A stretch of 64,000 nucleotides of DNA from an uncultured Prevotellaceae bacterium (GCA_900318865.1 ONMF01000009.1:25042-89041), one strand, 5' to 3'. Counted from the first letter of the stretch, positions 28,903 through 64,000 are shown. Notes: generated by a model not told the origin, from the letters alone. Made by a program: numbers and translations.

Positions 28903-29175
28903 GTGAGGTGGTCGCTCGCACAAATCATCATCGCGCGCGTGCGCGAATCATTACTTATAGTCGTCTTTAGCTGCAGAGCCGTCATGTGCCCCCACCGTGG
29001 CGGCAATAAAAAGTTTTGCGAGCAGTGATTTTTCTTGCCGAAACACTTGCACAAAATATTTTTTTTGCTTGTTCAAAAAAAAATTGCCAAAAATGCTTGC
29101 CTAAAGATTTTTATTACTAATTTCGCAGCGTGATATAACAGAACATACATTAAACAGACACGATACAATTTTATT

Positions 29176-29721
29176 ATGGTTTACAAATTTCTTGTAGGAT
29201 CGGAAGAGGCTGAGAATTTTAAACTTGAAATCGCCATCGACTCGGAGGACACGTTCTTGCGGCTGCGCAATGCCATCCTCGATGCCGCCGGGTATTCCAA
29301 GGACCAGATGGATTCGTTCTACATCTGCGACGAAGACTGGGTGAAAGAAAAAGAAGTGACTTTCATCGACATGGGTACCGACAGCGACGAGGATATCTGG
29401 CTGATGGAAGATACACCGCTGGCCGAGCTCATCGAGGACGAGGGGCAGAAACTTAAATTTGTGTTCGATTATGTGACTGAGCGCTATTTCTTCATGAAGC
29501 TGAACGAGGTGGTTCCCGGCAAAACGCTTCACGACCCCCTGTGCCAGCGCAAGGAAGGAAAGGCCCCGAAGGAGAACATCGACTTTGAGACTTTCAGCCC
29601 GGCAGCTGTGAAGGTTGTCGACACGAGTCTCGATGACCTTGACGCCGAGTTCTATGGCGAGGATGAGTTCGACGAAGAAGAAATCAGCGATTTCGGCGAG
29701 CTCGAAGACGGCATCCAGTGA
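29176..29721 (+). CDS. Conserved Bacteroidales protein of the pRiA4b ORF-3/TnpR-like fold with acidic tail
   Basis: F.LEIAIDSEDTF..L..AILDA.GY, SFYICDEDW and KLKFVFDY motifs. Confidence 0.75.
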   Translation: MVYKFLVGSEEAENFKLEIAIDSEDTFLRLRNAILDAAGYSKDQMDSFYICDEDWVKEKEVTFIDMGTDSDEDIWLMEDTPLAELIEDEGQKLKFVFDYVTERYFFMKLNEVVPGKTLHDPLCQRKEGKAPKENIDFETFSPAAVKVVDTSLDDLDAEFYGEDEFDEEEISDFGELEDGIQ

Positions 29722-29776
29722 TACCGTTGTCGCTCTGGATTCATCGACCGATTGTTATTTGATTAACGTTATAGCT

Positions 29777-50380: not shown

Positions 50381-50453
50381 GCGACAATAGCTCAGTTGGT
50401 AGAGCGCGACCTTGCCAAGGTCGAGGTCGCGGGTCCGAGTCCCGTTTGTCGCT
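50381..50453 (+). tRNA. tRNA-Gly (GCC)
   Basis: Cloverleaf GCGACAA/TTGTCGC with anticodon loop TTGCCAA; CCA not encoded. Confidence 0.96.
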
Positions 50454-50463
50454 CAACCCAAAT

Positions 50464-50550
50464 GTCCAGGTGGCGGAATTGGTAGACGCGCTACTTTGAG
50501 GGGGTAGTGCCCGTTCGGGCGTGTGAGTTCGAGTCTCATCTTGGACACCA
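50464..50550 (+). tRNA. tRNA-Leu (GAG)
   Basis: GTCCAGG/CTTGGAC acceptor stem, anticodon loop TTGAGGG, long variable arm and encoded CCA. Confidence 0.96.
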
Positions 50551-50980: not shown

Positions 50981-51949
50981 TTAATATATTATGGTTTCTG
51001 AATGTGGGTTATGCCGTTCAAGATTATAGGAGGCAGATAGGGGTGATGTGTTGGCATAACAATACTTGCAACCATGTGCACATGTGTTATAACTGCCAAT
51101 GTCTTTTGCCAGAATGCATCCGCACATCTTGCGTTGGCCGGTGTCCTTTCTTGCTGAATAGAGGAACTGTTGCAATGCCGCATCGTCGGGTGAGAGACGT
51201 GCTATGAGCTCGGGATCAATGCAACGGTTATGCTCGATGCCATACTGTTCCAGCGCTATCTCCTCGGCACATGTGGCAAGCGTCAAGTTCCACTTATCTC
51301 GATTCAGCGCGCTTAGTTTTTGAGCAAAATCGTTCATTGCTGTCGCGTCCCATTCAAGATAATTCACATGACATTGCTGCAAGTTTCGTTTCACTCTTGG
51401 GTATGTGGCTATATCGGCGAAACTGAAAACCAACTTCTCTGTATATCTGTGAAGTTGCTCTCCGATATAATAAATTCTTTCAAGCAATTTGTCGGTAGAT
51501 ATTTCATCAGTGAGCAAGAGTGGGTCAAAACGCCAAATCACACCGCCTTTTCCCAATTGCTCCACCAATTTTTTAAAACTCTCTATGCGCTCGTCCAAAG
51601 CTGGAACATTTGGCTCTATTCCCTCGGCCTCATAGTCGTTAAGCGTGAACTGGATGTAGCACCCAATCCCTCGCTCTTTGAGCTTATCGAGAAAAGGGAG
51701 GAGAGGCTTAGGATTCTTCGACCAGAAGACAATGAATCGCGTGTTGGCAAATGAAACATAACTATCTGCTCCATTAAACGGGTTGCGCCACCGTGCGTAG
51801 CCCTTTTCAAGCCGATTAAAGAACCAATCGCTATAGAATGCCGGCACATCGGTAGCCCGGCTTGCCGAGATGATGACGGGAGCCTGAGCCTTGACCCTCT
51901 CTCTGCCAGCTGTGACGATTTCGATATGTAGATGCTTTGATGCTGCCAT
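50981..51949 (-). CDS. DUF1848 family protein
   Basis: IISASRATDVPAFYSDWF, IVFWSKNP, QFTLNDY, WRFDP and C-terminal DIGSYNTCAHGCKYCYAN. Confidence 0.9.
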   Translation of the reverse strand: MAASKHLHIEIVTAGRERVKAQAPVIISASRATDVPAFYSDWFFNRLEKGYARWRNPFNGADSYVSFANTRFIVFWSKNPKPLLPFLDKLKERGIGCYIQFTLNDYEAEGIEPNVPALDERIESFKKLVEQLGKGGVIWRFDPLLLTDEISTDKLLERIYYIGEQLHRYTEKLVFSFADIATYPRVKRNLQQCHVNYLEWDATAMNDFAQKLSALNRDKWNLTLATCAEEIALEQYGIEHNRCIDPELIARLSPDDAALQQFLYSARKDTGQRKMCGCILAKDIGSYNTCAHGCKYCYANTSPLSASYNLERHNPHSETIIY

Positions 51950-52195
51950 AGGATATGTTGCAAAAGTACAATATTATCATGATAAAACGTTTCATTTTCC
52001 ATGCTAATCTTTATTTTGGTGCAAAATTAATGAATGAAGAAATCATTGTCAATGCCAAAAAAGAGTTTTGTTCTTATGCGTAGTAGGCTTATTAACAGAT
52101 AGATATAAAACTGCCGGAATCGAGATGCTTATGTAATATGCTGATAATTAATAATATGATGTCGCCGAATTTAACATATAGGTATAGGCGCTCTT

Positions 52196-52522
52196 GTCGT
52201 GGGTGGATTCAAGCACCGACTTCCATTCGCAGAAGATATTGAACGCGCCCATAAGCAGCGTGAAGAACGGTGCCGACAGCACGAACGATGTCAGCACGTC
52301 GATGCAGGAAAGACACAGCATGGGGAGAAAGTATTTGGTGGCTTTCTCCGTGGTCATTTTCAATGCCCTGCTGGTTGTGACTTTCCCTGCGAGTTTGGCC
52401 TTGCGCAGTCCGGCGATGAAATCGACGGCCATTGCCAGAATGACGGCGATGTAGGCGATTGCGAGCCACACGGCATGAATGTGCAGTGAGGCGTTTTTGA
52501 GTGTTTCGACTAAAAATTCCAT
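52196..52522 (-). pseudogene. 3'-truncated phage holin-like gene
   Basis: AMAVDFIAGLRKAK..G...SRALKMT..KA.KYF..L....ID...CEWKSV.E pattern of Bacteroidales phage holins; coding-like GC ends abruptly after ESTHDK and runs into AT-rich sequence. Confidence 0.6.
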
Positions 52523-52531
52523 AGAATTTGA

Positions 52532-52559
52532 TGAGTGATTAGTGGTGAGTGATGAGTGA
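52532..52559. repeat. 4 x 7-bp tandem repeat in the holin 5' UTR
   Basis: TGAGTGA TTAGTGG TGAGTGA TGAGTGA. Confidence 0.75.
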
Positions 52560-52568
52560 TTTTTGTCA

Positions 52569-52604
52569 CAAAGGTCACTCAAAGAAACCAGACTACAAAA
52601 GACA
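52569..52604 (-). promoter_or_regulatory. Island promoter motif copy 1 (TGTCTTTT-N20-GACCTTTG)
   Basis: Exact 20-nt spacing, upstream of the holin stub. Confidence 0.6.
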
Positions 52605-52605
52605 A

Positions 52606-52636
52606 GAAAAACGCACCTCCCGAAAGAGATGCGTCC
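52606..52636 (-). terminator. Terminator of the ECF/beta-barrel cassette
   Basis: GACGCATCTC-TTTCG-GGAGGTGCGT-TTTTT, running directly into the TGTCTTTT motif. Confidence 0.65.
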
Positions 52637-52658
52637 TCAAAATGTATGTGAAGCAGGG

Positions 52659-54809
52659 TCAATAGGAGCGGTTGGATTCTCGCTCTTTGGTGTCGCGATA
52701 GACGTTGTTCACTTTGTTGCTACCGAATGAGTAGGAAACACGCAGCGAGACTGCATGGCTGTGGATGTTATTACGGGCATAGATGCTATAGCCGTTATAC
52801 AGAGCGGTTGATTTCGTGATGTTCCACCCGAAGGGGTCGCTAACGGCGGCTGTAAGCGTCAGACGATTGTCGAGGAGCATATAGCGTAGCTCAAAGCTTA
52901 TCAACGACATGGACTCAAACCGCAACATGCGCTCATGATAGGGGAAATAATGGCTGAACCGGGCGTTGAAGATAAGCGTCTTTGCGCGATTGAGCATCCA
53001 TGACGAGTTAAGCTCAATCTTGCCGCTCCAACTGCTGTCGTCGCCATCTTTGAAATCGGCGATTTTTGATTTTGCCTGTGTGTTGAATACCTCGCCACCT
53101 GCATTCACGTTCCACCAATCGAAGATTGAACGGTAGTAGGAAGCGTAAAGTCCCACTTTGTTGTTGTCGATGCAGTTCTCGGGAATTGAGTGTTGTGAGC
53201 CATCTGTATTGAACCGCGTTACATAAGCAATCGAATTGCGATTATAGGAGTTGTACAGCACTGCATAGAAGCCCTTGAAGCTATAGCTCAGCTCGGCGTT
53301 GTGTGCAATACTTGGCTTAAGGTCGGGATTGCCCGACACATAGTCGCTCGTCGTGGTGTGATAGCGGAAAGGATTGAGGTCGCCGAAGTTCGGCCGAGTG
53401 ATGCCCATAGAATATGACAATGAGAAACGCCCAATGCGTTGATTGTTCCAACTGATGTTCAGCGAAGGGAACAGATAGCCGTAATTGTTGTTATGCTTCT
53501 CATCGCCCATTAACTGACGCCCTTTCACATTGGTATGCTCGTAACGTAATCCGAGTTTTCCGAAAAATGAGTTACTAAAACTCTTTTCGGCACTGGCGTA
53601 AGCTGCAATGGTGTTCTCTTTGTAGTCAAAGGCGTTGCTCTGCGATGGATCGTAAGCCCATCGCGAACCATTGTAAGTCCCGGCGGTCATGGCTGTGTTA
53701 TTACCGATTGTGGTGTAAACCATGCCGGTTTCCATCTTGAATGCGTCGAATGGTAGGGTGGCATCCAGTTTCACAGAATGGATGTGATACTTGTTGTGCC
53801 CGTCATTAGTCAAGCGTGTCGAGCCTCCATCCCAAGTCGTGGTCACATCAGAGAACGACTTGGTTGACTTGTTGAACCAGTTGTAGGTGAGGCTTAATAT
53901 CTTGCCCTTTTCATCAAGTTGCCAATCGGCAAAAGTCGTCAATGTGACGGCATTGTTGGGCCGTGACGGCGAATCATTGTTTGAACTGAATATGTGACCA
54001 TTGTCGTTAGTGACATCGCTTAATTTGCTGTTCATTCTGCTCGTGCTGAAATTGGCTATGCCCCCCACCGCAATTCGGTCGGTGAATTTGTACTTAAAAA
54101 GTCCGTTCAAGCCAAATGCGCGATTGGTGAAATGCGTACTTCGCTTTGAGGCCTTAACATGATCGCTGAAAGTGAAAGTGCGGTCAAGGTCGTTTATGCC
54201 TCGGTTGTCATTCCAGTTTGCGTCAACCGAAAGTTCAACTTTGCGATTGGTATGCGACAAACTGCCCCCCAGCATGTAGCTGAAGTCCTCACGTGCGATG
54301 CCGCGCCCCCACACGTTGCCCCGCGTGCCGAGCGACTCATTGCGCGTGGTGATGCTGATGAACGCCACATTGGTCGCGGCGGCATATTTCGCCGGTGGAG
54401 TGGTGAGCACCTCAATCTTCTCGATGCCCGTTGCTTGTAAGTTCTTCAGCTGCATGGCAATGGCATCGTCGGGCATCTCCAAAAGGCGACCGTCGACGAT
54501 GTAGCGCACCGACGACTTGCCGGCAACAGTCACGGCGTCGCCTTCGACCGTAACACGGGGAATGCGGTCAAGCACCTCGATGCCGTTCAACCCCTTGACG
54601 AACTCGTCATTCTTGGTGAGATAGACGATGCGGTCGGGGGCCTGCTTGAGCACCGTGCGGTGCCCTACTACCACCACTTCGTTCAATTCCAGCACTTTAT
54701 CCCAGTAGTTGGCAATGGAGTCAATGGCTGTTGAGTCATTGTTTTCCTGTGCAAAAAGGGACGTAGGAAGTATAGCCATCAACAAGATGGCTTTCAATGG
54801 TTTGTTCAT
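52659..54809 (-). CDS. Outer-membrane beta-barrel (TonB-dependent receptor-like, OMP_b-brl_3 type)
   Basis: Signal peptide, LNEVVVVGHR, plug motif LDRIPRVTV..IEKIEVLTTPPAKY.A, RP.FGDLNPF, GNPDLKP and C-terminal RVSYSFG. Confidence 0.85.
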   Translation of the reverse strand: MNKPLKAILLMAILPTSLFAQENNDSTAIDSIANYWDKVLELNEVVVVGHRTVLKQAPDRIVYLTKNDEFVKGLNGIEVLDRIPRVTVEGDAVTVAGKSSVRYIVDGRLLEMPDDAIAMQLKNLQATGIEKIEVLTTPPAKYAAATNVAFISITTRNESLGTRGNVWGRGIAREDFSYMLGGSLSHTNRKVELSVDANWNDNRGINDLDRTFTFSDHVKASKRSTHFTNRAFGLNGLFKYKFTDRIAVGGIANFSTSRMNSKLSDVTNDNGHIFSSNNDSPSRPNNAVTLTTFADWQLDEKGKILSLTYNWFNKSTKSFSDVTTTWDGGSTRLTNDGHNKYHIHSVKLDATLPFDAFKMETGMVYTTIGNNTAMTAGTYNGSRWAYDPSQSNAFDYKENTIAAYASAEKSFSNSFFGKLGLRYEHTNVKGRQLMGDEKHNNNYGYLFPSLNISWNNQRIGRFSLSYSMGITRPNFGDLNPFRYHTTTSDYVSGNPDLKPSIAHNAELSYSFKGFYAVLYNSYNRNSIAYVTRFNTDGSQHSIPENCIDNNKVGLYASYYRSIFDWWNVNAGGEVFNTQAKSKIADFKDGDDSSWSGKIELNSSWMLNRAKTLIFNARFSHYFPYHERMLRFESMSLISFELRYMLLDNRLTLTAAVSDPFGWNITKSTALYNGYSIYARNNIHSHAVSLRVSYSFGSNKVNNVYRDTKERESNRSY

Positions 54810-54826
54810 AATGATTTATTGATTAG

Positions 54827-55210
54827 TTATTTGAATGCTTTTTCTTTGCCTTGAATGAAGAAGAAAGCTCCGCCATGCTTGTCGCGTTGCAGGCCAATGT
54901 AGATGAGTTCGCCGTTGTTGACAATCTGGAGCGACATGTACTGCCCGTCAGCTCCATTGTAATCAGAGTATTCTTTTGCTTTTGGCGCATCTTTCGAGAT
55001 GGCTTCAGCAATTTTCTTGACAATACCAGGGTTGTTCTTTACTGTCAGTCCGCGATAGTAGTTGCCATTGTTTTTGTAGATTGAAATGGTGACACTCTTG
55101 TTGTCGTTGTATCGGCCATCAAACAGGCTCTCAACGTTCAGCTTCGGTGGGTTGGCATAGACCGCCAAAGCTGTAACTATGCACGTGATTATGATGATTA
55201 AACGTTTCAT
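54827..55210 (-). CDS. Small secreted hypothetical protein
   Basis: Signal peptide; the start overlaps the upstream stop codon (TAATG). Confidence 0.75.
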   Translation of the reverse strand: MKRLIIIITCIVTALAVYANPPKLNVESLFDGRYNDNKSVTISIYKNNGNYYRGLTVKNNPGIVKKIAEAISKDAPKAKEYSDYNGADGQYMSLQIVNNGELIYIGLQRDKHGGAFFFIQGKEKAFK

Positions 55211-55602
55211 TACTGTTGGGATTTATGTTGCATGAATTGATTTACTTTCTCTTGTTCAGAGGCATTTTGCTGTGCCACAGTGCGCATGAATTGCTCCATC
55301 CTTGCGACATCGGCTTCGGCAATCGACTGCGCTTCATCGCCACTGGTTTTCTGCCCTGCGACATATACGACACACTCGCGGCCGCACGATGTGGCAACAG
55401 CCCCTTTGCCATTGAAAAGCATTGCCGCTCCAACAATCAGCACTATGCAAGCTGCCGCCGCGGCACTCCGAAACCAGATTGTGCCCTTGTGTTTTTGAGC
55501 AGAGACGGCGCGGACTCGTTGGCGCAGCGCCAGTGACGCGCCGATTGAACGTCTCGGCCTCAATAATTCTTTTATGTCTTGATATTCATCCATATCGGTC
55601 AT
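55210..55602 (-). CDS. Putative single-pass anti-sigma factor
   Basis: Short cytoplasmic N-terminus and one TM (AAAAACIVLIVGAAMLF); ATGA-coupled to the ECF sigma gene. Confidence 0.65.
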   Translation of the reverse strand: MTDMDEYQDIKELLRPRRSIGASLALRQRVRAVSAQKHKGTIWFRSAAAAACIVLIVGAAMLFNGKGAVATSCGRECVVYVAGQKTSGDEAQSIAEADVARMEQFMRTVAQQNASEQEKVNQFMQHKSQQ

Positions 55603-56102
55603 TGATTATTGGTGAAATACTTTTCTCGCAGCTTTTTCATTCCCGCATAAAACCGTGATTTTGCTGTTGATTGTGGCAGACTGAGTATGTGGCTTATCTC
55701 CACAAACGAGAGTTCGTCAACCACTTTCATTCTCACAATCTCGGCCTCATTAGGCGGCAAGTCGTCCAGCAGGTTGTTGATGCGGTCAATCTCCTCTTGT
55801 TCAAGTCGCTCATCCGGCTCGTCGGCCAACTCAATGCTGTCAAGAGGGACAGTTGGGAGACGCTTTCTCCTGAACTCATCCCGGCACAAGTTGTAAACGA
55901 TTTTGAACAAGTAGCACCTCGTAGCGTTAACCTTTTCTCTGTTTTCAAGCAGGCGCACCACGGCCTCACACACAATATCTTCTGCCATAGGGCGGTCGCA
56001 CGTGCGGAAGTAGGCAAACCTTACCAGCGCGTCAAGGTTCGCCTCAATCACTTCGTCAATATGTCTACGTCTGCTGCCAAACATAATCTCCTGAACACTC
56101 AT
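55599..56102 (-). CDS. ECF-type RNA polymerase sigma factor
   Basis: Region 2 (AEDIV.EA..RL...YLFKIVYNLCRD) and region 4 (LP..EAEIV.M....ELSF.EIS.IL..P.ST.KSR). Confidence 0.9.
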   Translation of the reverse strand: MSVQEIMFGSRRRHIDEVIEANLDALVRFAYFRTCDRPMAEDIVCEAVVRLLENREKVNATRCYLFKIVYNLCRDEFRRKRLPTVPLDSIELADEPDERLEQEEIDRINNLLDDLPPNEAEIVRMKVVDELSFVEISHILSLPQSTAKSRFYAGMKKLREKYFTNNQ

Positions 56103-56225
56103 TCGGCGTTCCACTATATAAGACGCAAAAATACGAAAATCGCCGAAAAGAAGTGAGGAAAAATCTGTCGCGAGGTATTATGTCGCTTAATATTTGAAAA
56201 TTTGCAACCAGAAAACGAACAGATT

Positions 56226-56336
56226 ATGGCAGATCAGATTAACAACGAATTAGTGAGCGGTGGTGAATATTCGCTGTTCCGCGACGACATATTGAAACGC
56301 ATCCGCAGTGCCCAATATGAGGCCTTGCGTGCGGCT
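56226..56336 (+). pseudogene. N-terminal stub of a DUF1016 (YhcG/PDDEXK) gene
   Basis: EYSLFRDDILKRIRSAQYEALRA matches the DUF1016 N-terminal helix; similarity ends at about codon 37. Confidence 0.6.
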
Positions 56337-56380
56337 TTCTTCTTGTGTGCGCTCTCCTGCGCTCTCGCTCGGCTCATCGC

Positions 56381-56445
56381 AACAATCGTGCAAACCGAAT
56401 GCAGAGTCAAGCTTGCTTGAACTATGCTAAGAGGCGCAGCCGATT
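56381..56445 (+). repeat. Short palindromic dispersed repeat (REP/MITE-like)
   Basis: AAC[AATCGTGCAAACCGAATGCAGAGTCAAGCTTGCTTGAACTATGCTAAGAGGCGCAGCCGATT]AAC: AATCG/CGATT ends, internal hairpin and a possible AAC direct repeat. Confidence 0.6.
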
Positions 56446-56463
56446 AACGCGAAATTTATTTCG

Positions 56464-56499
56464 CAAGAGTAGATTGCTACGGTGGCTCGGCAAAAGACA
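56464..56499 (-). promoter_or_regulatory. Island promoter motif copy 2 (TGTCTTTT-N20-TACTCTTG)
   Basis: Exact 20-nt spacing, just downstream of the DUF3667 stop. Confidence 0.55.
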
Positions 56500-56517
56500 C
56501 CGTTTACTTCATGATTT

Positions 56518-57546
56518 TCACGGATGCTGTGTTTCGTGAGGCTCGTCCGCTTGATTCACAGTGGAAGTGGCGGGCTTGGAGCGTCGATGGTCAATGTGCC
56601 ATGCTATCGGCAGCCCAATGCCGACTAGCACCAGGATGAACAAGCCGAAGGCGATGGCGCCAAGCACCTGGTTGCTCATGGCTTTTGTCGTCCATAGCCT
56701 GTGTCCAACCAATTCGATAATCAAGGCTGAGAACATCAATAGCACCCCGTTCCACCACACCGCAACTATTCGCCACAATGTGCCCCACACGCTGTAGCCA
56801 AATAGCTGATAATAACTGCGAAACCACACCAGCCCCAGCATTATCAGCAAGATCAATGTCATCGATGCCGGGTGACCGTTGGGCAACACGACCGAGGTCA
56901 GCAATCGCCATACGCTCATCTGCACGCCTATAAACACCTGGATGAAAAAGCTCTCGGGCAGCGTGTGGCGGTTGCATCGTGGCGACTCGCGACAGATGAG
57001 GTAGGTGGGAACGATGAAAAACGAGAGCATAATCAACGTTGCCCATGCAGGATTATCTTTAAGCCAGTTGATGGTGATGACGGTGATGTTAAAAATACTG
57101 ATACTGTCGTCACTGATGTCGATCTTAGTCTCTGCTTGCGTGACGCCAAAGATGTTCTCAACCAGCAGGATGATGACGGTGACGAAAAACAACATCTTGA
57201 CTGGCGGAAAACTCACCTGCCGCTTTCCGCTGATGTAGTCGGCAATGAAGTAGCCCGGTCGCAGCATCAGTTGCCAGATGGAGTAAGGCATGGAGCGTGT
57301 GCCCATGCCCCAAAGGTCGAGCGCGCTCTCGCGCACGGCGCCCCAGGTGATATGTTGCTGGCCGGTCTTCTGGCCGCACACAGGGCAGTAGTTGCCCTCG
57401 TACTCGTAGCCGCAGCATGCACAGGTGTGGCCGGTCGACTCCTTGACCTTGAACTCGGAACCATTCTGCTTCCAAGATTGAAAGCGCATGTAGTGTTCTT
57501 TGATGGTTGGTTGTAAGCGTGTGTATCGTTCTTTGATATTTGACAT
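56518..57546 (-). CDS. DUF3667 membrane protein
   Basis: C..CG..YEGNYCP.CGQK zinc knuckle, LMLRPG..I.DYISGKR..FPPVKM and multiple TM helices. Confidence 0.85.
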   Translation of the reverse strand: MSNIKERYTRLQPTIKEHYMRFQSWKQNGSEFKVKESTGHTCACCGYEYEGNYCPVCGQKTGQQHITWGAVRESALDLWGMGTRSMPYSIWQLMLRPGYFIADYISGKRQVSFPPVKMLFFVTVIILLVENIFGVTQAETKIDISDDSISIFNITVITINWLKDNPAWATLIMLSFFIVPTYLICRESPRCNRHTLPESFFIQVFIGVQMSVWRLLTSVVLPNGHPASMTLILLIMLGLVWFRSYYQLFGYSVWGTLWRIVAVWWNGVLLMFSALIIELVGHRLWTTKAMSNQVLGAIAFGLFILVLVGIGLPIAWHIDHRRSKPATSTVNQADEPHETQHP

Positions 57547-57636
57547 AAAACAATCAATTTTGAGCTACAAAAATAATATTTTTTTGCCAACTCACGCGCA
57601 GTACCCCGTGCTGCAAACTTTGTCGAGCTGAAGGTT

Positions 57637-57712
57637 CGGGCGAGATGGACTCCTTTTCAGTCTCGACCCGGAAAGCGGAAACGAGTGCTGATAGTTAGTT
57701 GGTATCAATCAT
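57637..57712 (-). pseudogene. Short phage-gene stub with an internal stop (MIDTN*LSALVSAFRVETEKESISPE)
   Basis: ATG directly downstream of promoter motif copy 3. Resemblance to Bacteroidales prophage protein N-termini is from recall, not searched. Confidence 0.4.
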
Positions 57713-57740
57713 AAGAATGTAGTTTTGCTGAATTGCTGTG

Positions 57741-57776
57741 CAAAACTACATTGATTGAGTGGTAGAGCAAAAGACA
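57741..57776 (-). promoter_or_regulatory. Island promoter motif copy 3 (TGTCTTTT-N20-TAGTTTTG)
   Basis: Exact 20-nt spacing, fused to the preceding terminator. Confidence 0.62.
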
Positions 57777-57781
57777 AGAAA

Positions 57782-57805
57782 AAAGCCCACCCAAAGGTGA
57801 GCTTT
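57782..57805 (-). terminator. Terminator of the 57824-58402 cassette
   Basis: AAAGCTCACC-TTTG-GGTGGGCTTT-TTT. Confidence 0.7.
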
Positions 57806-57823
57806 ATTCTGATGATGCGTTAA

Positions 57824-58402
57824 TTATAAGTCATCCATCGCGGCATTATTCATTATAGCACCATTAATACCATCTATATATGCCAAGATCACATAGCATT
57901 TACTAACACCCTCATGGGCTAGAGACAAAGCAATCCGCCCCTTTTCAGTGTCGAAGATAGTTTTATAAGTACATCTATCAAACTTTAATTCATATAGTTT
58001 ATCACTATCATTTCTTGGTTGCACCATAGATTGAAAATTTTCTACGACCTCACTTGGTTCACCATATTTCGTTGTAAGCATTTTTTTGAGTTTAGTATAA
58101 TTCGCCTCCAACAATCCCCATTGGTCTAGTGCTGGGAACATTACGCCAACCAGATAGACTAAATCTTTTTGGTCGACAGAACTTACAAACACATAGCAGT
58201 CTTTATATCCAGCGAAATCACCTGTTAGCATGGCTTGACCATTTTCGCTTCCTAGTTTTATGAAGCCTTTTTGAGTCAGTTGCGAACTAAATTGACGAAG
58301 TGTACCATCAATTGGAATACCCTTAAATGTAAGATGCTCACTTTGAGCAAATATAGTTATGGGTAATAATAACAATATGAGAAATAATAATTTAGCTTTC
58401 AT
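57824..58402 (-). CDS. AT-rich secreted hypothetical protein (moron-like)
   Basis: Signal peptide MKAKLLFLILLLLPITIFA then QSEHLTFKGIPIDG; own TACCTTTG promoter. Confidence 0.8.
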   Translation of the reverse strand: MKAKLLFLILLLLPITIFAQSEHLTFKGIPIDGTLRQFSSQLTQKGFIKLGSENGQAMLTGDFAGYKDCYVFVSSVDQKDLVYLVGVMFPALDQWGLLEANYTKLKKMLTTKYGEPSEVVENFQSMVQPRNDSDKLYELKFDRCTYKTIFDTEKGRIALSLAHEGVSKCYVILAYIDGINGAIMNNAAMDDL

Positions 58403-58456
58403 ATTATTGGAATTATTAAATTCAGATAGTGCAAAGGTACTATAATTTTCGTAACC

Positions 58457-58868
58457 TCAGCTACTTCTCCCGAAATTTTTATCGAGGGCGTTGCTCAAAA
58501 TGCCCGTGAAAGTGGCCCCGATATTATCCTCATAGAACTCCTTGATTCGCATTGCCGAGGCGTAATACTTGCGCGAGAACCAACGGCGGCGTTTGCTTGC
58601 CGTGCCGCCAAGCCCAGTCGTTATTGCCGTAGCGGTGCAGGACTTTCAGCCCTGCCCAGCGGCAGAGGCAATAGGCTTTGACATCGGTTGCGGTGTAGCC
58701 CTGCGCGAGCAAGACGAAAACGTACCGAAGCTGCTTGTCCGATAAATCCGCGGTTTAGCGAGAGCAGAAAGAATAACGTTTTTTCTTTTTGCCAAGCGTG
58801 AGCGGATTATCTAAATCTTCCCATCTGGTGGGAAGTTTGAGGTCGATGGAGATTTTGTCTTGTTGCAT
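58457..58868 (-). pseudogene. Fusion of two phage-like gene fragments, interrupted by a 69-bp insertion
   Basis: Reconstructed N-terminal fragment MQQDKISIDLKLPTRWEDLSDKQLRYVFVLLAQGY...HGKQ joins out of frame to the C-terminal fragment KRRRWFSRKYYASAMRIKEFYEDNIGATFTGILSNALDKNFGRSS*. Confidence 0.55.
58743..58817 (+). mobile_element. 63-bp MITE/REP-like insertion flanked by a TAAATC direct repeat
   Basis: TAAATC at 58743-58748 and 58812-58817; internal AATCCGC/GCGGATT inverted repeat. Removing 58749-58817 restores the frame W-E-D-L-S-D-K-Q. Confidence 0.72.
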
Positions 58869-58890
58869 AGAAAAAGCGGTTATCGTACTG

Positions 58891-58926
58891 CGAAGGTACG
58901 GTAACCGCTTCTATGCGTAAAAGACA
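58891..58926 (-). promoter_or_regulatory. Island promoter motif copy 4 (TGTCTTTT-N20-TACCTTCG), embedded in a long inverted repeat (58865-58916)
   Basis: Exact 20-nt spacing; GCATAG..AAGCGGTTA.CGTAC/GTACG.TAACCGCTT.CTATGC. Confidence 0.58.
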
Positions 58927-59420
58927 ACGATTTGTGCCTTATCTCACAATCATGTTGAGCATCGCTCTAACTCGTTCACGCTCGGCAATGCTCATGCAAG
59001 CATGGCGTTGCTCTCACTTAATCACTCGTTTTTTGCCGTCTTCGATGACGATGCCCTTGTAGTCCTTGCCTACGGGTTGGCCCATGAGGTTGTAACGCTG
59101 GCCGCTCTTTGCGGGCGCCACGTTGATGTCCTCAACACCGGTAGCGATGGCCTCCCTGAAGGTGGCGGTCACTGCCACGGGAGCAGCCGGCATCTGGAAG
59201 GTGTAAGTGCCATTCTCACCAGGAGTGAGCTCCAATGAGCCGCCGCGCAGACGCAAGGGTGCGCCGCTCGGCTCGCCGTCGACGGTGGTCACGGTGAGGT
59301 TTTCCAACTCATAACCATCATCGGGTGTCACGGTCAGCGTCACGGTCTCGCCCTCGGCGGCGGTAGTCTTATCACATTCCACTGTGCCGTGCTCAAACGA
59401 TTCGGGCAGACTGATGGCGA
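58913..59420. repeat. ~500-bp direct repeat, copy 1 (3' coding module plus 3' UTR of the surface-protein cassette)
   Basis: Near-identical to 60992-61499 at offset 2079. Confidence 0.92.
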
Positions 59421-60633
59421 ACTGAGGCGACACCACGTTCAGATGCATGACTGACATACCAGGCATATCAGGATTGCCTGAAGCCTTGACGGTATAGGTG
59501 ACACCAGCCTCCAGATTGATCGTGAAATCCAAATTTGAACTGACGTTAAAATATCTGCTAATCAAATTTTCTCCCAGATATATTTCAATAGCGGGACGTA
59601 TTTCAGCATCGCCAGTTGTGTAGAACCTATAATCACCGCTCTCTGTAGGCGTGAATAAATAATCGAAGGAGTTACCATATGGAACGTCAATCACATTCTT
59701 GCCCACAGTGAGGGGGGGGAGTTCGAGTTTGGCGATGTTAAAGATCACGCCCTCGAGTACGTCTTCTACTTGAGCCATCGGCACGACGTAGTAAGTCTCA
59801 TTTGCCTCAAGCATGGCTCCTACCTTGACCGTTTCACCCGCAGGAGCATAACCAGAACCTTTAAGGTCGTTGTTTTTAAGAAGCAGTACTTGCGCTATGG
59901 CGCCGCAGTTCATCGAGAAAACGTAGGCTCCACTTTCTTCGGGCACAAAGGCATATTGTGTGCCATCGTAACTCAAATCTATCTCATTGTCGCCCATTTG
60001 GAGCGATGGCATCTCGTATGACCCGCTGATGACGACATCGGCTGCGGGCATGGTGAATGTGTAAACCATTCCAGATTCATCGACTGTCATGGCGACAGGC
60101 TGGCCGCCGCTGGTGGCCGTCAGACCAGAAATAGTCACTCCTGGACTCACCGTTAGTTTGACTTCTTGTCCCTCGTAGGCCACAACAGGCAGTGGTCCCA
60201 TCACATTTGAGAGTTCGGCACACTCGGGGTCGGGGATGATGATGTGGCCTGGGCGTATCACAACCTGGGCAGAAACACTTGTAGTTAATTCATTATTAGG
60301 TAACAGCCGCATGATATAGGTGGTGCCGGCGTAAAGCTTGTTCGGATAGCCACAGTGGCTGACGTGCGTCTGTAGGAGTGCATCCGGCTCGGACCAGGCA
60401 TAGTACAGAGAGTCGCTCCACAGGTTTAAAGCCATGGAATGCGATTCGGCGCATGTTGTGCTTATCACATAATAACCGGTCTCCTCGGGAGTGAACGACA
60501 GATAGCCCTTGTCACTGTCATTAGAGCCTAACTCAATTCCATTGTTCTCTCCCATTTGGAGCGGGATGAACTCTTGTGCCCACACCGTGGCGGTGGTGAG
60601 CAGTGCGAAAAGAAATAGTAATACTTTTTTCAT
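59014..60633 (-). CDS. Secreted modular surface protein A (three PPC-like beta-sandwich repeats, InlB-B-like repeats, T9SS-like tail)
   Basis: Signal peptide; repeated L..G.N.I...F.P.ESG.Y.F; GETVTLTVTPDDGYEL; YNLMGQPV...KGIVIEDGKK. Confidence 0.82.
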   Translation of the reverse strand: MKKVLLFLFALLTTATVWAQEFIPLQMGENNGIELGSNDSDKGYLSFTPEETGYYVISTTCAESHSMALNLWSDSLYYAWSEPDALLQTHVSHCGYPNKLYAGTTYIMRLLPNNELTTSVSAQVVIRPGHIIIPDPECAELSNVMGPLPVVAYEGQEVKLTVSPGVTISGLTATSGGQPVAMTVDESGMVYTFTMPAADVVISGSYEMPSLQMGDNEIDLSYDGTQYAFVPEESGAYVFSMNCGAIAQVLLLKNNDLKGSGYAPAGETVKVGAMLEANETYYVVPMAQVEDVLEGVIFNIAKLELPPLTVGKNVIDVPYGNSFDYLFTPTESGDYRFYTTGDAEIRPAIEIYLGENLISRYFNVSSNLDFTINLEAGVTYTVKASGNPDMPGMSVMHLNVVSPQFAISLPESFEHGTVECDKTTAAEGETVTLTVTPDDGYELENLTVTTVDGEPSGAPLRLRGGSLELTPGENGTYTFQMPAAPVAVTATFREAIATGVEDINVAPAKSGQRYNLMGQPVGKDYKGIVIEDGKKRVIK

Positions 60634-60673
60634 ACGCGTATGGTTTTAAAAGTGAATAAATGAGTTATACAAT

Positions 60674-60743
60674 CAAAGCGGCACACTCAAGCCGAAGCAT
60701 GAATGTGCCGTATGAGGTTGTTTATAAGAAACCAGTCCTACAA
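60674..60743 (-). promoter_or_regulatory. Conserved 70-nt 5' leader, copy 1
   Basis: Identical to 63251-63320, both 40 nt upstream of the ATG; contains a cUUCGg-capped hairpin. Confidence 0.75.
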
Positions 60744-60991
60744 AATCTGAGTGGCAATAATACACTAACAATCAAAGACTTATGCGTGTTATGCAAGTCA
60801 AATATCCTTTGGGCTGATATGTTAGCGATTGCAATCATTATCTTTATTACCCTTGTTTGAAATACAAATGTATAGCTAATATTTAACATGGCAATCACCA
60901 AACGGCTGAAATTTCAAGAAATCTACGAATTTTGCCGAATGAGAAGGGCTTTTGAGCCGCCAAAGTTCACGACACATCGGTTGGCGGTGTG

Positions 60992-61499
60992 ATGCGTAAA
61001 AGACAACGATTTGTGCCTTATCTCACAATCATGTTGAGCATCGCTCTAACTCGTTCACGTTCGGCAATGCTCATGCAAGCAAGGCGTTGCTCTCACTTAA
61101 TCACTCGTTTCTTGCCGTTCTCGATGACGATGCCCTTGTAATCCTTGCCTACGGGCTGGCCCATGAGGTTGTAACGCTGGCCGCGCTTGGCGGTAGCCAC
61201 GTTGATGTCCTCAACACCGGTAGCGATGGCCTCCCTGAAGGTGGCGGTCACTGCCACGGGAGCCGCCGGCATCTGGAAGGTGTAAGTGCCATTCTCACCA
61301 GGAGTGAGCTCCAATGAGCCGCCGCGCAGACGCAAGGGTGCACCGCTTGGCTCGACGTCAACAGTAGCCACGGTTAGCGTTTCCAACTCGTAGCCGTCGT
61401 CGGGGGTCACGGTCAGCGTCACGGTCTCACCCTCGGCGGCTTCAGTCTTGTCGCAAGTCACCGAGCCATTCTCAAACGATTCGGGCAGCGTAATAGCAA
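60992..61499. repeat. ~500-bp direct repeat, copy 2
   Basis: Near-identical to 58913-59420. Confidence 0.92.
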
Positions 61500-63210
61500 A
61501 TGGCTGATATTCTACGATGGGCATCATCTGGGGTGTGTCGGTGACCGGCGGCAGGGCGAGGAACGCCTCGTTCTGCGGCATCATGTCGCCCAAGTAGCGG
61601 TAGTAGCCCACACCGTAGTTGTTGCCCAGCAAGTAGAAGGTATGCTCTGGGTAGTTTACAGCTGTCCAGTTGGGGATGTATCTGGGGGCGTTCTCGGCGT
61701 GCAGCTCGTTAGCCCGCGTGTCGCTGCTTGTGTCGGTGGTGCGGTTCAGTTGCACGAAATTGTTGCTCTTGCCCGTCTTCAGCACCACCGCCGTTCCAGC
61801 ATTCACTATCTTGTCTTTCACCTCGGTCAACACCACCTTACCGTCTGCCACCGTGGCTTTATAGACCTTCGCCGCTCCCTGCGCCTTGAAGTTGGCGTAG
61901 TCGTTGTAGAACGTCGTCCAACTCGCGTCGTCCCAGTTATTCGTCCTTGGCTTCAATACCAGCGTCGTTGCGTCGGGAAAGGCTTGCGCTCCCATCGTTG
62001 GATTGCCGCTGATGGTGACCGAGTTCAGGGCGTTACATTCGTTGAATGCTTTATTCCCGATGCTCGTCAAGCTGCTCGGGAGGGTGATGCTTGTCAGGGC
62101 GTCACAATTGAAGAATGCCATCGTCCCGATGCTCGTCAGGCCAGACGGGAATGTGACGCTCGTCAGGGCGTAACAATTGAAGAAGGCTTCATTCCCAATG
62201 CTCGTCAGGCCAGACGGGAATGTGACGTTCGTCAAGTGGATGCAAGAATAGAAGGCGTTGTTGCCAATGCTCGTTACATTGGGCATCTTGAGGGTCTCAA
62301 GTTTGGTCCAGATGAATGCTCCGTCAGCGATGCTCGTGACGGAGGCAGGTAGTTCATCTTCCTTTATCTTTATGCCGCTGTTGTCCACGATATGGACATT
62401 CTTTAAAAATCTGCACTGATTGGCCGACGGTATCGTGCTGGCGTCATAGTCTTGGCTGAAGTATATCGTTCTGAGCTCGCTGAAATCTGAGAAGTTCATG
62501 CCCGTTATTCCTACCACTGCTGCGCCGTCGATGATGGCGGGGAAGGCTAATATGTCGCTTTTCGGTAAGCCAAAAGAAGAGAGTCCCGTGACGTGGCATT
62601 GAGAGCCGTCGCTGCTCTTCTGGATATCCCAACCTGGCGCAGCGTTGGATTCGCAGTGCATATAGATGTAGTCCCCACCGGCACCATCGTTCAGGTCGTA
62701 GCCCGTGGCTGCACTAAAGGTGTATATGCCACCGCTCTGCGTCGCGTTGAAGGTGATTTGGCTGACTGCTTCCATATTTTCCATTATTTCCGTGGTGTAG
62801 TAGAGGTGGATGTCGTCACCGCCGGCATTGCTGTTCAGGTCGCCCTTCTTCTGCTTGAAGTGGTCGCCGCCGTCATAGGGCACCAGCTTAAAGCGATGGC
62901 CGTAGGCGTCACGGGTGTCGGGGGCAGTGCCAGAGGCGTCGCTGATAAGGAAACGCGTGACGAAGGTGTGGTTGGGCGATGCCGTACTTCCCTCTTTGTA
63001 GAGCAGATAGATGTAGTCGCTCGACGAGCCGCAGCCCGCATTCAGGTCCTGGTCGATGACCGTCCAGCCTTGGTCAGTGTAGGTATCCTTAAGCTCGTCG
63101 GTCTCGGTTTTGGTGCCTCCTATGAGCATCACCTCGGCGATGTACTTCGGCTCGGCCCACATCGAGAGACTGGCGAGCACAGCCACAAGTAAGAGTATAA
63201 ACTTTTTCAT
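61093..63210 (-). CDS. Secreted modular surface protein B (MABP/beta-prism-like DLNxGAGGDYIY repeats, BspA-type LRRs, InlB-B-like repeat, T9SS-like tail)
   Basis: Signal peptide; DLNAGCGSSSDYIY, DLNSNAGGDDIH and DLNDGAGGDYIY; TFPSGLTSIG..AF..C LRRs; C-terminal ~135 aa about 90% identical to protein A. Confidence 0.85.
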   Translation of the reverse strand: MKKFILLLVAVLASLSMWAEPKYIAEVMLIGGTKTETDELKDTYTDQGWTVIDQDLNAGCGSSSDYIYLLYKEGSTASPNHTFVTRFLISDASGTAPDTRDAYGHRFKLVPYDGGDHFKQKKGDLNSNAGGDDIHLYYTTEIMENMEAVSQITFNATQSGGIYTFSAATGYDLNDGAGGDYIYMHCESNAAPGWDIQKSSDGSQCHVTGLSSFGLPKSDILAFPAIIDGAAVVGITGMNFSDFSELRTIYFSQDYDASTIPSANQCRFLKNVHIVDNSGIKIKEDELPASVTSIADGAFIWTKLETLKMPNVTSIGNNAFYSCIHLTNVTFPSGLTSIGNEAFFNCYALTSVTFPSGLTSIGTMAFFNCDALTSITLPSSLTSIGNKAFNECNALNSVTISGNPTMGAQAFPDATTLVLKPRTNNWDDASWTTFYNDYANFKAQGAAKVYKATVADGKVVLTEVKDKIVNAGTAVVLKTGKSNNFVQLNRTTDTSSDTRANELHAENAPRYIPNWTAVNYPEHTFYLLGNNYGVGYYRYLGDMMPQNEAFLALPPVTDTPQMMPIVEYQPFAITLPESFENGSVTCDKTEAAEGETVTLTVTPDDGYELETLTVATVDVEPSGAPLRLRGGSLELTPGENGTYTFQMPAAPVAVTATFREAIATGVEDINVATAKRGQRYNLMGQPVGKDYKGIVIENGKKRVIK
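62040..62270. repeat. 69-bp tandem repeats encoding 23-aa BspA LRRs
   Basis: CCC(G/A)ATGCTCGTCAGGCCAGACGGGAATGTGACG recurs with a 69-bp period. Confidence 0.85.
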
Positions 63211-63250
63211 AAGCGGTAAGTTTTATGAGTGAATAATAAATTTCACGAAG

Positions 63251-63320
63251 CAAAGCGGCACACTCAAGCCGAAGCATGAATGTGCCGTATGAGGTTGTTT
63301 ATAAGAAACCAGTCCTACAA
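63251..63320 (-). promoter_or_regulatory. Conserved 70-nt 5' leader, copy 2
   Basis: Identical to 60674-60743. Confidence 0.75.
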
Positions 63321-63432
63321 TTTTTGGTGGGGTAAATGCGCTGGTTGTCTGCAATTTATGTAAATCACCTAAGCCGCAGTCACATTGAATGGTATATTGA
63401 CAATCGCGCATCATAAAGCATTAAGATAGTTC

Positions 63433-63871: not shown

Positions 63872-64000
63872 TCATGACAGCGACTTGTCGATGATGGTGG
63901 GCACCATATCGACATCCTCCTTGAACACCTTGCCCGAGTCCACCTGACCCTTTAGCCGTTCGAGCGTAGGCGAGAAAAACGCCGCCGAGGCGTTCAAGTG
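63872..64000 (-). CDS. C-terminal end of an unknown CDS (5' part outside window)
   Basis: Open frame HLNASAAFFSPTLERLKGQVDSGKVFKEDVDMVPTIIDKSLS* with GC-rich codon usage. Confidence 0.55.
   Translation of the reverse strand, partial: HLNASAAFFSPTLERLKGQVDSGKVFKEDVDMVPTIIDKSLS

Follow-up and report, generated by a model that had tools for sequence, protein, structure and literature searches.

A two-part box that probably marks the late operons of uncultured temperate Bacteroidales phages, and its copies in a decayed prophage of a Prevotellaceae bacterium

Why should one short two-part sequence, with exactly 20 nucleotides (nt) between its halves, recur four times on the same strand of a single chromosomal island? 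The question is raised by a 64,000-nt stretch of DNA from an uncultured Prevotellaceae bacterium (GCA_900318865.1, ONMF01000009.1:25042-89041; hereafter the window), which corresponds to positions 25042-89041 of contig C17 in a 2.51-Mb genome of 30 contigs (G000) and leaves 312 nt of that contig beyond its end. A preliminary description of the window reported the motif TGTCTTTT-N20-NANNNTNG four times with exact spacing, and regarded it as an extended -33 promoter box that also marks where cargo cassettes are gained or swapped. Sequence comparison with related loci points to a more specific answer: the generalized form, YGTCTTTT-N20-TAnnTTTG, is very probably the late-operon promoter of widespread, uncultured, temperate, siphovirus-like Bacteroidales phages, and the copies in the window would be its relics in a decayed prophage.

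The motif is present exactly four times in the window (sites 1 to 4, Table 1), and all of these composite sites lie on the minus strand of a low-GC (guanine plus cytosine) island beside a tRNA-Leu gene. The coordinates, strand and 20-nt distance described previously were all recovered, although only site 3 has a canonical TAnnTTTG as its -7 box, those of sites 1, 2 and 4 (GACCTTTG, TACTCTTG and TACCTTCG) being one base off each. The TTCG variant of site 4 was found again in the homologous promoters of genomes G142 and G038, and a further species of the genus has the GA variant seen at site 1. As had been noticed, every site follows the end of a cargo gene, and sites 1, 3 and 4 stand directly before a phage-like stub. 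In dinucleotide-preserving shuffles of the window, composite matches averaged 0.05 and never exceeded 1. The bare 8-mer TGTCTTTT was found six times in the window, with five of these copies on the minus strand from 52.6 to 61.0 kb, and 75 times on both strands of the whole genome. Seven loose composites (four strict) were detected in the genome, each of them beside phage genes or stubs. Five of the seven belong to the window island, counting site 6 (contig C17, 89133-89098), which lies 57 nt beyond the window end; a composite on the 5-kb contig C19 precedes a tail-fibre-like gene of 498 amino acids (aa), and one near the end of contig C3 precedes a tape measure gene.

The upstream half of the motif proved to be highly specific. 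With positions counted relative to the T of TAnnTTTG, 1,507 TAnnTTTG boxes outside phage-related stretches had TGTCTTTT as their -28 to -21 octamer in no case and a form with one mismatch in a single case, whereas at nine prophage-bearing loci this octamer was identical 27 times and one-off 8 times. The earlier statement that core promoters lack the extension is thus borne out: none of about 1,500 core -7 boxes has the 8-mer at the right distance, which makes it an element-specific signature. Among 201 Muribaculaceae genomes, in which kin genomes are not independent of one another, 79 contain a total of about 200 strict matches, compared with 8 matches for a reversed-pattern control, and the strict matches typically form same-strand clusters with members a few kb apart. 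An N19 control gave 25 matches in the genomes of this family, all of them singletons with host-like A/T-rich spacers. On the basis of the shuffles and of these two controls, an origin of the motif by chance or base composition was ruled out.

For a selection-free test, 80 loci (L168-L247; 1.19 Mb, with 355 relatives in all) were anchored on portal homologues in one-genome-per-species contigs. Their GC content ranges from 39 to 58%, and they represent five or more host families, with record titles naming Muribaculaceae, Duncaniella, Bacteroidaceae, Prevotella, Xylanibacter, Alistipes and Paludibacteraceae. In these loci YGTCTTTT-N20-TAnnTTTG was found 174 times on the portal (late-gene) strand and 8 times on the opposite strand. 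Spacings of 19, 20 and 21 nt occurred 1, 174 and 1 times, respectively, and no copy had a spacing of 15-18 or 22-25 nt. The distance of the octamer from TGTCTTTT at portal-strand TAnnTTTG boxes is bimodal (143 boxes at 0, 31 at 1, 1 at 2 and 435 at 3 or more), and 28 of the 31 one-off octamers are CGTCTTTT. An engineered 'phage promoter', P_BfP1E6, has been reported as a strong constitutive promoter in B. thetaiotaomicron (10.1101/2025.03.18.644028). Among the papers searched, none shows the 8-mer in a Bacteroides promoter context, and Bacteroides phage B124-14 has no copy of the motif.

We then compared the geometry of the box with that of 534 candidate promoters of the genome's own genes, which served as the host reference. 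The canonical promoter of the Bacteroidota primary sigma factor, as reportedly defined by Bayley and colleagues in 2000, consists of a -33 TTTG and a -7 TAnnTTTG. In the host reference the -33 TTTG lies at -24 to -21, that is, 20 nt before the TA, and positions -28 to -25 are A/T-rich. The TTTT of the 8-mer falls on the same four positions, so that GTC constitutes a 5' extension, in agreement with the previous reading as an extended -33 box; the final G of the host TTTG is replaced by T in 99% of the phage sites. Phage and host promoters share the -7 octamer (for the phage sites, TAnnTTTG is part of the class definition), the preference for C directly after it (77% of sites), the distance between the elements and an expected start a few bases past the box. 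They differ in that the phage upstream element is invariant, with positions 2-8 of YGTCTTTT conserved to at least 99% while the host TTTG reaches only 45-57%, and in that the phage spacing is rigid (20 nt in 174 of 176 cases) while host spacing varies from 19 to 21 nt. Moreover, the A/T-rich elements found in host promoters at -9 to -4 and -39 to -37 are absent from the phage sites, which are confined to one phage lineage. An A stands at +12, the fifth base past the -7 box, in 76% of the sites. The first ATG that opens a long frame is located 4 nt past the box in 31 sites, mainly those of a 371-aa gene family (e.g., G011:C5 23534-23576), and 16-24 nt past it in most others. In the former group the A of the ATG is the predicted first transcribed base, and leaderless mRNAs are therefore predicted, a type of transcript thought to be uncommon in this phylum. 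A reading of GTCT as the -10 element of an extracytoplasmic function (ECF) sigma factor, which it resembles, was rejected because no conserved sequence lies 16-17 nt ahead of the 8-mer.

The setting of the box was examined in an intact relative phage on contig C5 of the Muribaculaceae genome G011. Its gene order is helix-turn-helix (HTH) repressor, primase, ArdA, 164-aa protein, head protease, capsid, 171-aa gene through large terminase, and cargo, followed by 371-aa gene, portal, DUF6712 adaptor, 252-, 170- and 150-aa genes, cargo, tail-fibre-like gene, tape measure and integrase. Seven copies of YGTCTTTT-N20-TAnnTTTG were identified, located before the protease, 171-aa, 371-aa, portal, 252-aa, tail-fibre-like and tape measure genes; all of them are in the structural region, and the early region has none. 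In the comparative loci a copy of the motif stands at the head of 40 out of 43 tail-fibre-like genes; for the 371-aa family the count is 35 of 54, for the portal genes 29 of 60 and for the 252-aa family 11 of 54, fractions that are lower bounds since the open reading frames of these loci are our own simple calls. It never stands directly before the adaptor, 170-aa, 150-aa, 77-aa or amidase genes inside those operons. The gene downstream belongs to a core or common late family at 92% of the sites, and the upstream neighbour is rare or intermediate at 69%; thus, the box marks the border between cargo and a conserved operon head. Enrichment before structural and lysis genes of Bacteroidales prophages, which had been suggested as a check on the motif, was indeed observed, as the box is found at the head of virion and lysis operons in related prophages numbering in the hundreds. 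For the 498-aa tail-fibre-like protein, no relatives turned up in IMG/VR by pattern search or in the deposited-phage collection, in which the portal had matches of at most 29% identity only. Among cultured phages, Polaribacter phage Leef_1 (Helgolandviridae) comes closest, with a portal 24% identical over 88% of its length and a similar order of modules (primase, protease/capsid, terminase, portal/adaptor, tape measure, integrase). No YGTCTTTT-N20-TAnnTTTG site is present in Leef_1, and the box is therefore specific to the Bacteroidales branch.

The arrangement that we propose is as follows. The downstream half of the promoter would be an ordinary Bacteroidota primary-sigma -7 box, and the upstream half, at the host -33 position, would offer TTTT preceded by an invariant GTC, with a fixed 20 nt between the halves and a predicted transcription start about 5 nt past the -7 box. 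Each late operon (protease/capsid, terminase, 371-aa, portal/adaptor, 252-aa, tail-fibre-like plus lysis, and tape measure) would have its own copy, usually right after the terminator of the previous operon, and accessory 'moron' genes would gather in the gap before the next promoter. The GTC extension would be read by a phage-encoded factor made after induction, acting as a class II activator or in the style of sigma appropriation. By analogy with Mu C/Mor and T4 MotA/AsiA, we lean towards the view that such a protein reads the box together with sigma-A. The missing A/T-rich stretches, a seven-base block conserved far beyond the host -33 element, and the need to keep holin and amidase genes off in lysogens, as the late lysis genes of any temperate phage must be, argue for this view.

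The likeness to activator-dependent late promoters (Mu C/Mor, T4 MotA, P2 Ogr) lies in a phage-specific upstream box that is held at a fixed phase and confined to late operons. The late promoters of Mu (lys, I, P and mom, dependent on protein C), together with Mu Pm (dependent on Mor), also serve separate late operons, each with its own promoter, and they combine a good downstream element with a phage-specific sequence in place of the normal upstream one; they are silent in lysogens. However, Mu C binds as a dimer to a dyad near -43.5, whereas the box described here is an asymmetric 7-8-mer at about -40 to -33, and no C/Mor homologue was found. Similarly, T4 middle promoters (a MotA box at -30 plus the host -10 element, served by AsiA/MotA) have, instead of a -35 element, a non-palindromic box of some 8-9 bp whose distance from a host-type downstream element is fixed. 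Unlike T4, the phages here are temperate and have hosts of a different phylum, and no MotA or AsiA homologue was present among the proteins tested.

The coincidence of TTTT with the host -33 element could also mean that the box is nothing more than a strong or optimal form of the -33 element, recognized by the host primary sigma factor with no phage factor at all, the timing being set by genome copy number or by a repressor acting elsewhere. T is the second most common base at -21 in host promoters, and both the -7 box and the C at +8 resemble those of the host. In addition, promoter-plus-stub units before cargo recur in the window genome and in G161, and their retention would be explained if relic copies drove the downstream cargo constitutively. 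Nevertheless, the supposedly optimal box is used by none of the core -7 boxes surveyed above, the A/T-rich elements of host promoters are absent from the sites, and the box is limited to late operons. It is also established that constitutive firing before holin/amidase operons would be lethal in a lysogen. We therefore consider a host-only promoter quite unlikely.

Another alternative is that GTCTTTT is an operator, at which a phage repressor would silence, in each late operon, a promoter of host type that is otherwise active. A protein bound to the box, which overlaps the -33 element, would occlude RNA polymerase, and near-invariance suits a sequence-specific DNA-binding protein. Furthermore, perfect stems of at least 7 bp overlap the -7 box at 27% of the phage sites compared with 4% of the core promoters. 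On the other hand, a single non-palindromic 7-8-mer held in phase with the -7 box resembles the usual contacts of activators or sigma factors and not those of dimeric repressors, the sole repressor-like gene seen (an HTH_3 protein) is located at the early-region switch, and separate repression of seven or more late promoters is known to be unusual for temperate phages. There is only a slim chance, in our estimate, that the box acts as an operator.

If a phage factor does read the box together with sigma-A, the gene for it may be sought among the early genes. In each of the seven phages for which that region is available, the gene for the 164-aa protein is the final conserved one of the early region, ahead of the first late promoter. 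The protein has no Pfam family, no PHROG family and no PDB fold match, and its predicted fold (predicted local distance difference test score, pLDDT, 90) is novel; its only BFVD relative comes from Leef_1 (E = 4e-4, template modelling (TM) score 0.60-0.66). The protein was detected in 48 of the 201 family genomes, 38 of which have the strict motif. We name the 164-aa family as our only candidate reader of the box, a weak link that we regard as doubtful. The wider family of 164-176-aa early proteins (L098:5415-5942 and homologues; alignments A1 and A2) is widespread in gut metagenomes, a single search giving 151 clusters, one of which has 2,411 members. A 90-aa zinc-ribbon protein was also considered as an Ogr-like activator and was dismissed, as its matches are to endonuclease VII/HNH families and it lacks conservation. 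A fuller scheme can be put forward tentatively, as possible and not as likely: GTCTTTT and a novel-fold phage protein, whether the 164-aa protein or another early one, would steer sigma-A polymerase to the late operons of hundreds of gut Bacteroidales prophages, and orphan copies of the box would wire cargo genes to infection.

Several points weigh against the proposed arrangement. With three of the four window -7 boxes off-consensus, some copies may be dead. The palindromes that overlap the -7 box at about a quarter of the sites are unexplained by the model. The 8-mer keeps a usable TTTT at the -33 position, and host sigma alone might fire from it. Finally, the co-occurrence of the 164-aa protein with the motif is non-discriminating, because any other gene of the lineage would be expected to show it, and the protein is absent from 41 of the 79 motif-bearing genomes.

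We next turn to the window itself, whose sites are probable late-promoter relics in a decayed prophage that has kept mostly cargo genes. Ordered backbone fragments, an adjoining tRNA and lower GC, as befits a decayed prophage with retained morons, are all present. The GC content is about 47% from 50.55 kb to the contig end and about 57% in the rest of the window, and on contig C3 a homologous tRNA adjoins the phage integrase. Fragments of the portal, 252-aa, tail-fibre-like and holin genes each have a motif copy directly upstream. At the DNA level, 52194-52565 is 90% identical to C19 2789-3156, and 57637-57715 is 90% identical to C19 4732-4810. The stubs follow one another as portal, 252/150-aa, tail-fibre-like and holin, which is the gene order of the intact phage, and the island is therefore read as one prophage backbone eroded by internal deletions. 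A series of promoter, 5' stub and cargo, in the phage's original order, is left beside tRNA-Leu. The genome lacks the terminase, capsid, complete portal and primase/early module of the phage lineage, and the 164-aa protein as well. Under the activator model, the window copies would be orphans, silent unless a related phage supplies the factor. The arrangement recalls lambdoid morons (the Juhala/Hendrix model), which are accessory genes between late operons, often with their own terminator, just upstream of the next promoter; in contrast to these, the backbone around the window morons has been deleted and promoter-plus-stub relics remain.

Individual sites have recognizable counterparts in other genomes. 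The arrangement at site 1 is repeated in another species of the genus, where the box is GAACTTTG at N21. The spacer and leader of site 2 have homologues in the promoters of tail-fibre-like genes on G098:C31 and G000:C19, and only a non-coding leader follows this site in the window, with no protein match by blastx. A near-identical relative of the site 3 promoter precedes intact genes of 496-498 aa in G120:C24. The homologues of site 4 in G120, G142 and G181 keep its palindrome despite changes on both arms. The cargo genes that precede sites 1 and 3 end in strong intrinsic terminators, which lie right against these sites. The idea that the 8-mer is merely the T tail of a terminator was discarded, since terminators adjoin these two sites only and the 8-mer is invariant with or without one.

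The position of the sites at borders between cargo and backbone could suggest junctions of the integron or att kind, where cargo cassettes would be inserted or exchanged by a recombinase. The duplication of a BspA-type gene ends 6 nt past the 8-mer, and arrays of promoter, stub and cargo recur in G161 and G098. Yet no recombinase gene lies in the island or next to it on this contig; the integrases of contigs C3 and C25 are phage-type and adjoin tRNA genes. The fixed 20-nt phase and the location of ATG at +1 or +12-20 from the predicted start are properties of a promoter. Only the asymmetric 8-mer and the -7 box are conserved, while only a minority of sites has a palindrome, of a kind that varies with promoter class, and the intact-phage order of the stubs is explained by internal deletions. 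With no linked recombinase, conserved features of promoter type and stubs that derive from deletions, an integron-like site has next to no likelihood. Of the proposal that the motif marks points of cargo gain or exchange, the border between cargo and conserved genes is thus retained (the 92% and 69% given above); the stubs, however, are ordinary deletion remnants and give no evidence for a cassette-swapping mechanism. The fifth half-site is present where it had been noted, but it is a by-product of the tandem duplication. The two direct repeats are 91% identical over 509 nt, and both site 4 and half-site 5 stand at the end of a repeat of about 500 nt, so they are not independent; as the homology ends 6 nt past the 8-mer, half-site 5 is a truncated duplicate with no -7 box.

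Table 1. Promoter sites, phage remnants, cargo genes and other features of the window (window coordinates)
Feature	Position	Strand	Remarks
tRNA-Gly and tRNA-Leu	50381-50550	+	Island edge; likely integration site
DUF1848 cargo gene	50981-51949	-	Pfam
Holin-family fragment	52148-52523	-	PF05105; first 111 codons (52523-52191) 93% identical to the intact 161-aa holin of C19, then diverges
Site 1	52569-52604	-	8-mer TGTCTTTT at 52604-52597, -7-like box GACCTTTG at 52576-52569; upstream of holin 5' fragment
Intrinsic terminator after outer-membrane barrel gene	52607-52638	-	14 pairs, tail CTTGTCTTTT; T tail enters the site 1 8-mer
OMP_b-brl_3 outer-membrane beta-barrel cargo gene	52659-54809	-	Pfam
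ECF sigma cargo gene	55599-56114	-	Pfam; with two small partner proteins
Site 2	56464-56499	-	TGTCTTTT-N20-TACTCTTG; tail-fibre-type promoter, gene behind it lost
DUF3667 cargo gene	56518-57546	-	Pfam
Tail-fibre-like (MIDT...) stub	57624-57713	-	30 codons, frameshifted
Site 3	57741-57776	-	TGTCTTTT-N20-TAGTTTTG; sole fully canonical window copy
Intrinsic terminator after 192-aa cargo gene	57782-57805	-	10 pairs, tail TTTCTTGTCT; abuts site 3
192-aa cargo protein	57824-58402	-	No Pfam family
150-aa late-gene family C-terminus	58461-58619	-	About 45 codons; joined to the 252-aa stub by internal deletion
252-aa late-gene family stub	58558-58869	-	Residues 1-80, short insert; blastx to G011 29012-29770 and relatives
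Site 4	58891-58926	-	TGTCTTTT-N20-TACCTTCG; 252-aa-family promoter; spacer and -7 box inside palindrome 58855-58927
Direct repeat copy 1	58913-59421	-	3' end of 539-aa surface-protein gene, 3' flank and 8-mer
Two surface-protein cargo genes with leucine-rich repeats (LRR) and InlB-B repeats	59014-60633, 61093-63210	-	Pfam
Direct repeat copy 2	60992-61500	-	3' end of 705-aa BspA LRR gene, 3' flank and 8-mer
Half-site 5	60998-61005	-	8-mer alone; truncated copy via duplication of the BspA-type gene's 3' flank
Portal N-terminal stub	63876-64000, on to 64036 past the window	-	Promoter is site 6 (64092-64057)

Some further features of the sites and stubs were recorded. Promoters of the 252-aa family (window 58855-58927; G120:C24, G142:C129 and G181; loci L028 and L039-L041) have their spacer and -7 box inside a palindrome with a stem of about 20 bp followed by a T run, the stems being GCGGTTA/TAACCGC in some homologues and GGCTTTA/TAAAGCC in others. 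This palindrome may be a terminator that overlaps the next promoter, or an operator. Contig C5 of the window genome (102960-103160, L004) contains another surface-protein gene, with C-terminal DNA that matches the two window genes at 83% identity; past it stands a perfect 18-bp hairpin, a homologue of the site 4 palindrome, with TGCCTTTC at the position of the 8-mer. The match of the 252-aa stub to intact relatives is broken at 58743-58817, in agreement with a small hairpin-bearing insert noted separately. The 5' leader of the holin fragment (52525-52560, minus strand) contains ATCACTC-like units, aatcactcatcactcaccactaatcactcatc, and stretches of about 30 nt with 88-94% identity to it occur many times in other genomes of the genus, some of them in tandem, with 20 matches in one genome.

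Phage 5' regions were also seen in other contexts. The two surface-protein genes of the window share an upstream block of about 170 nt (60578-60754 and 63155-63330; 80% identical), which contains remnants of the spacer of a holin-type promoter (TTTTGTAGGACTGGTTTCTT) and also of holin codons 9-17, and the cargo leaders thus seem to have been built from phage 5' regions. Contig C16 of the same genome (92488-92837) carries a relic, TTGTCTTTT, followed by the first 92 tape measure codons, far from other phage pieces. Elsewhere in the genus, arrays that combine the motif with a tail-fibre-like stub of 50-90 codons were found in G161:C23 (9.6-18.2 kb) and G161:C27 (68.9-70.8 kb), loci L026 and L027, and in G098:C31, and the unrelated cargo that follows comprises a cation-efflux-like protein, an ABC transporter, an LRR protein and an insertion sequence. 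Five motif-plus-stub units are present in one genome of the genus, and one array is surrounded by ordinary chromosomal genes, no further phage genes being close to it.

Gut Bacteroidales have abundant temperate phages, and the timing of the late genes of these phages has hardly been studied. A box with seven positions conserved to at least 99% and a 20-nt phase, found from Muribaculaceae to Prevotella and Alistipes, allows late operons, prophage remnants and moron slots to be marked from sequence, and it opens a defined search for the protein that reads it. If the pairing of an activator with this box is true, it might provide an orthogonal switch for the engineering of Bacteroides and Muribaculaceae. 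Orphan copies before surface-protein and outer-membrane cargo raise the question of whether there are host genes that respond to phage infection. Should box and reader indeed form a regulatory pair, the cargo of the window, including the surface LRR proteins and the ECF-sigma/outer-membrane module, would be wired to infection by related phages.

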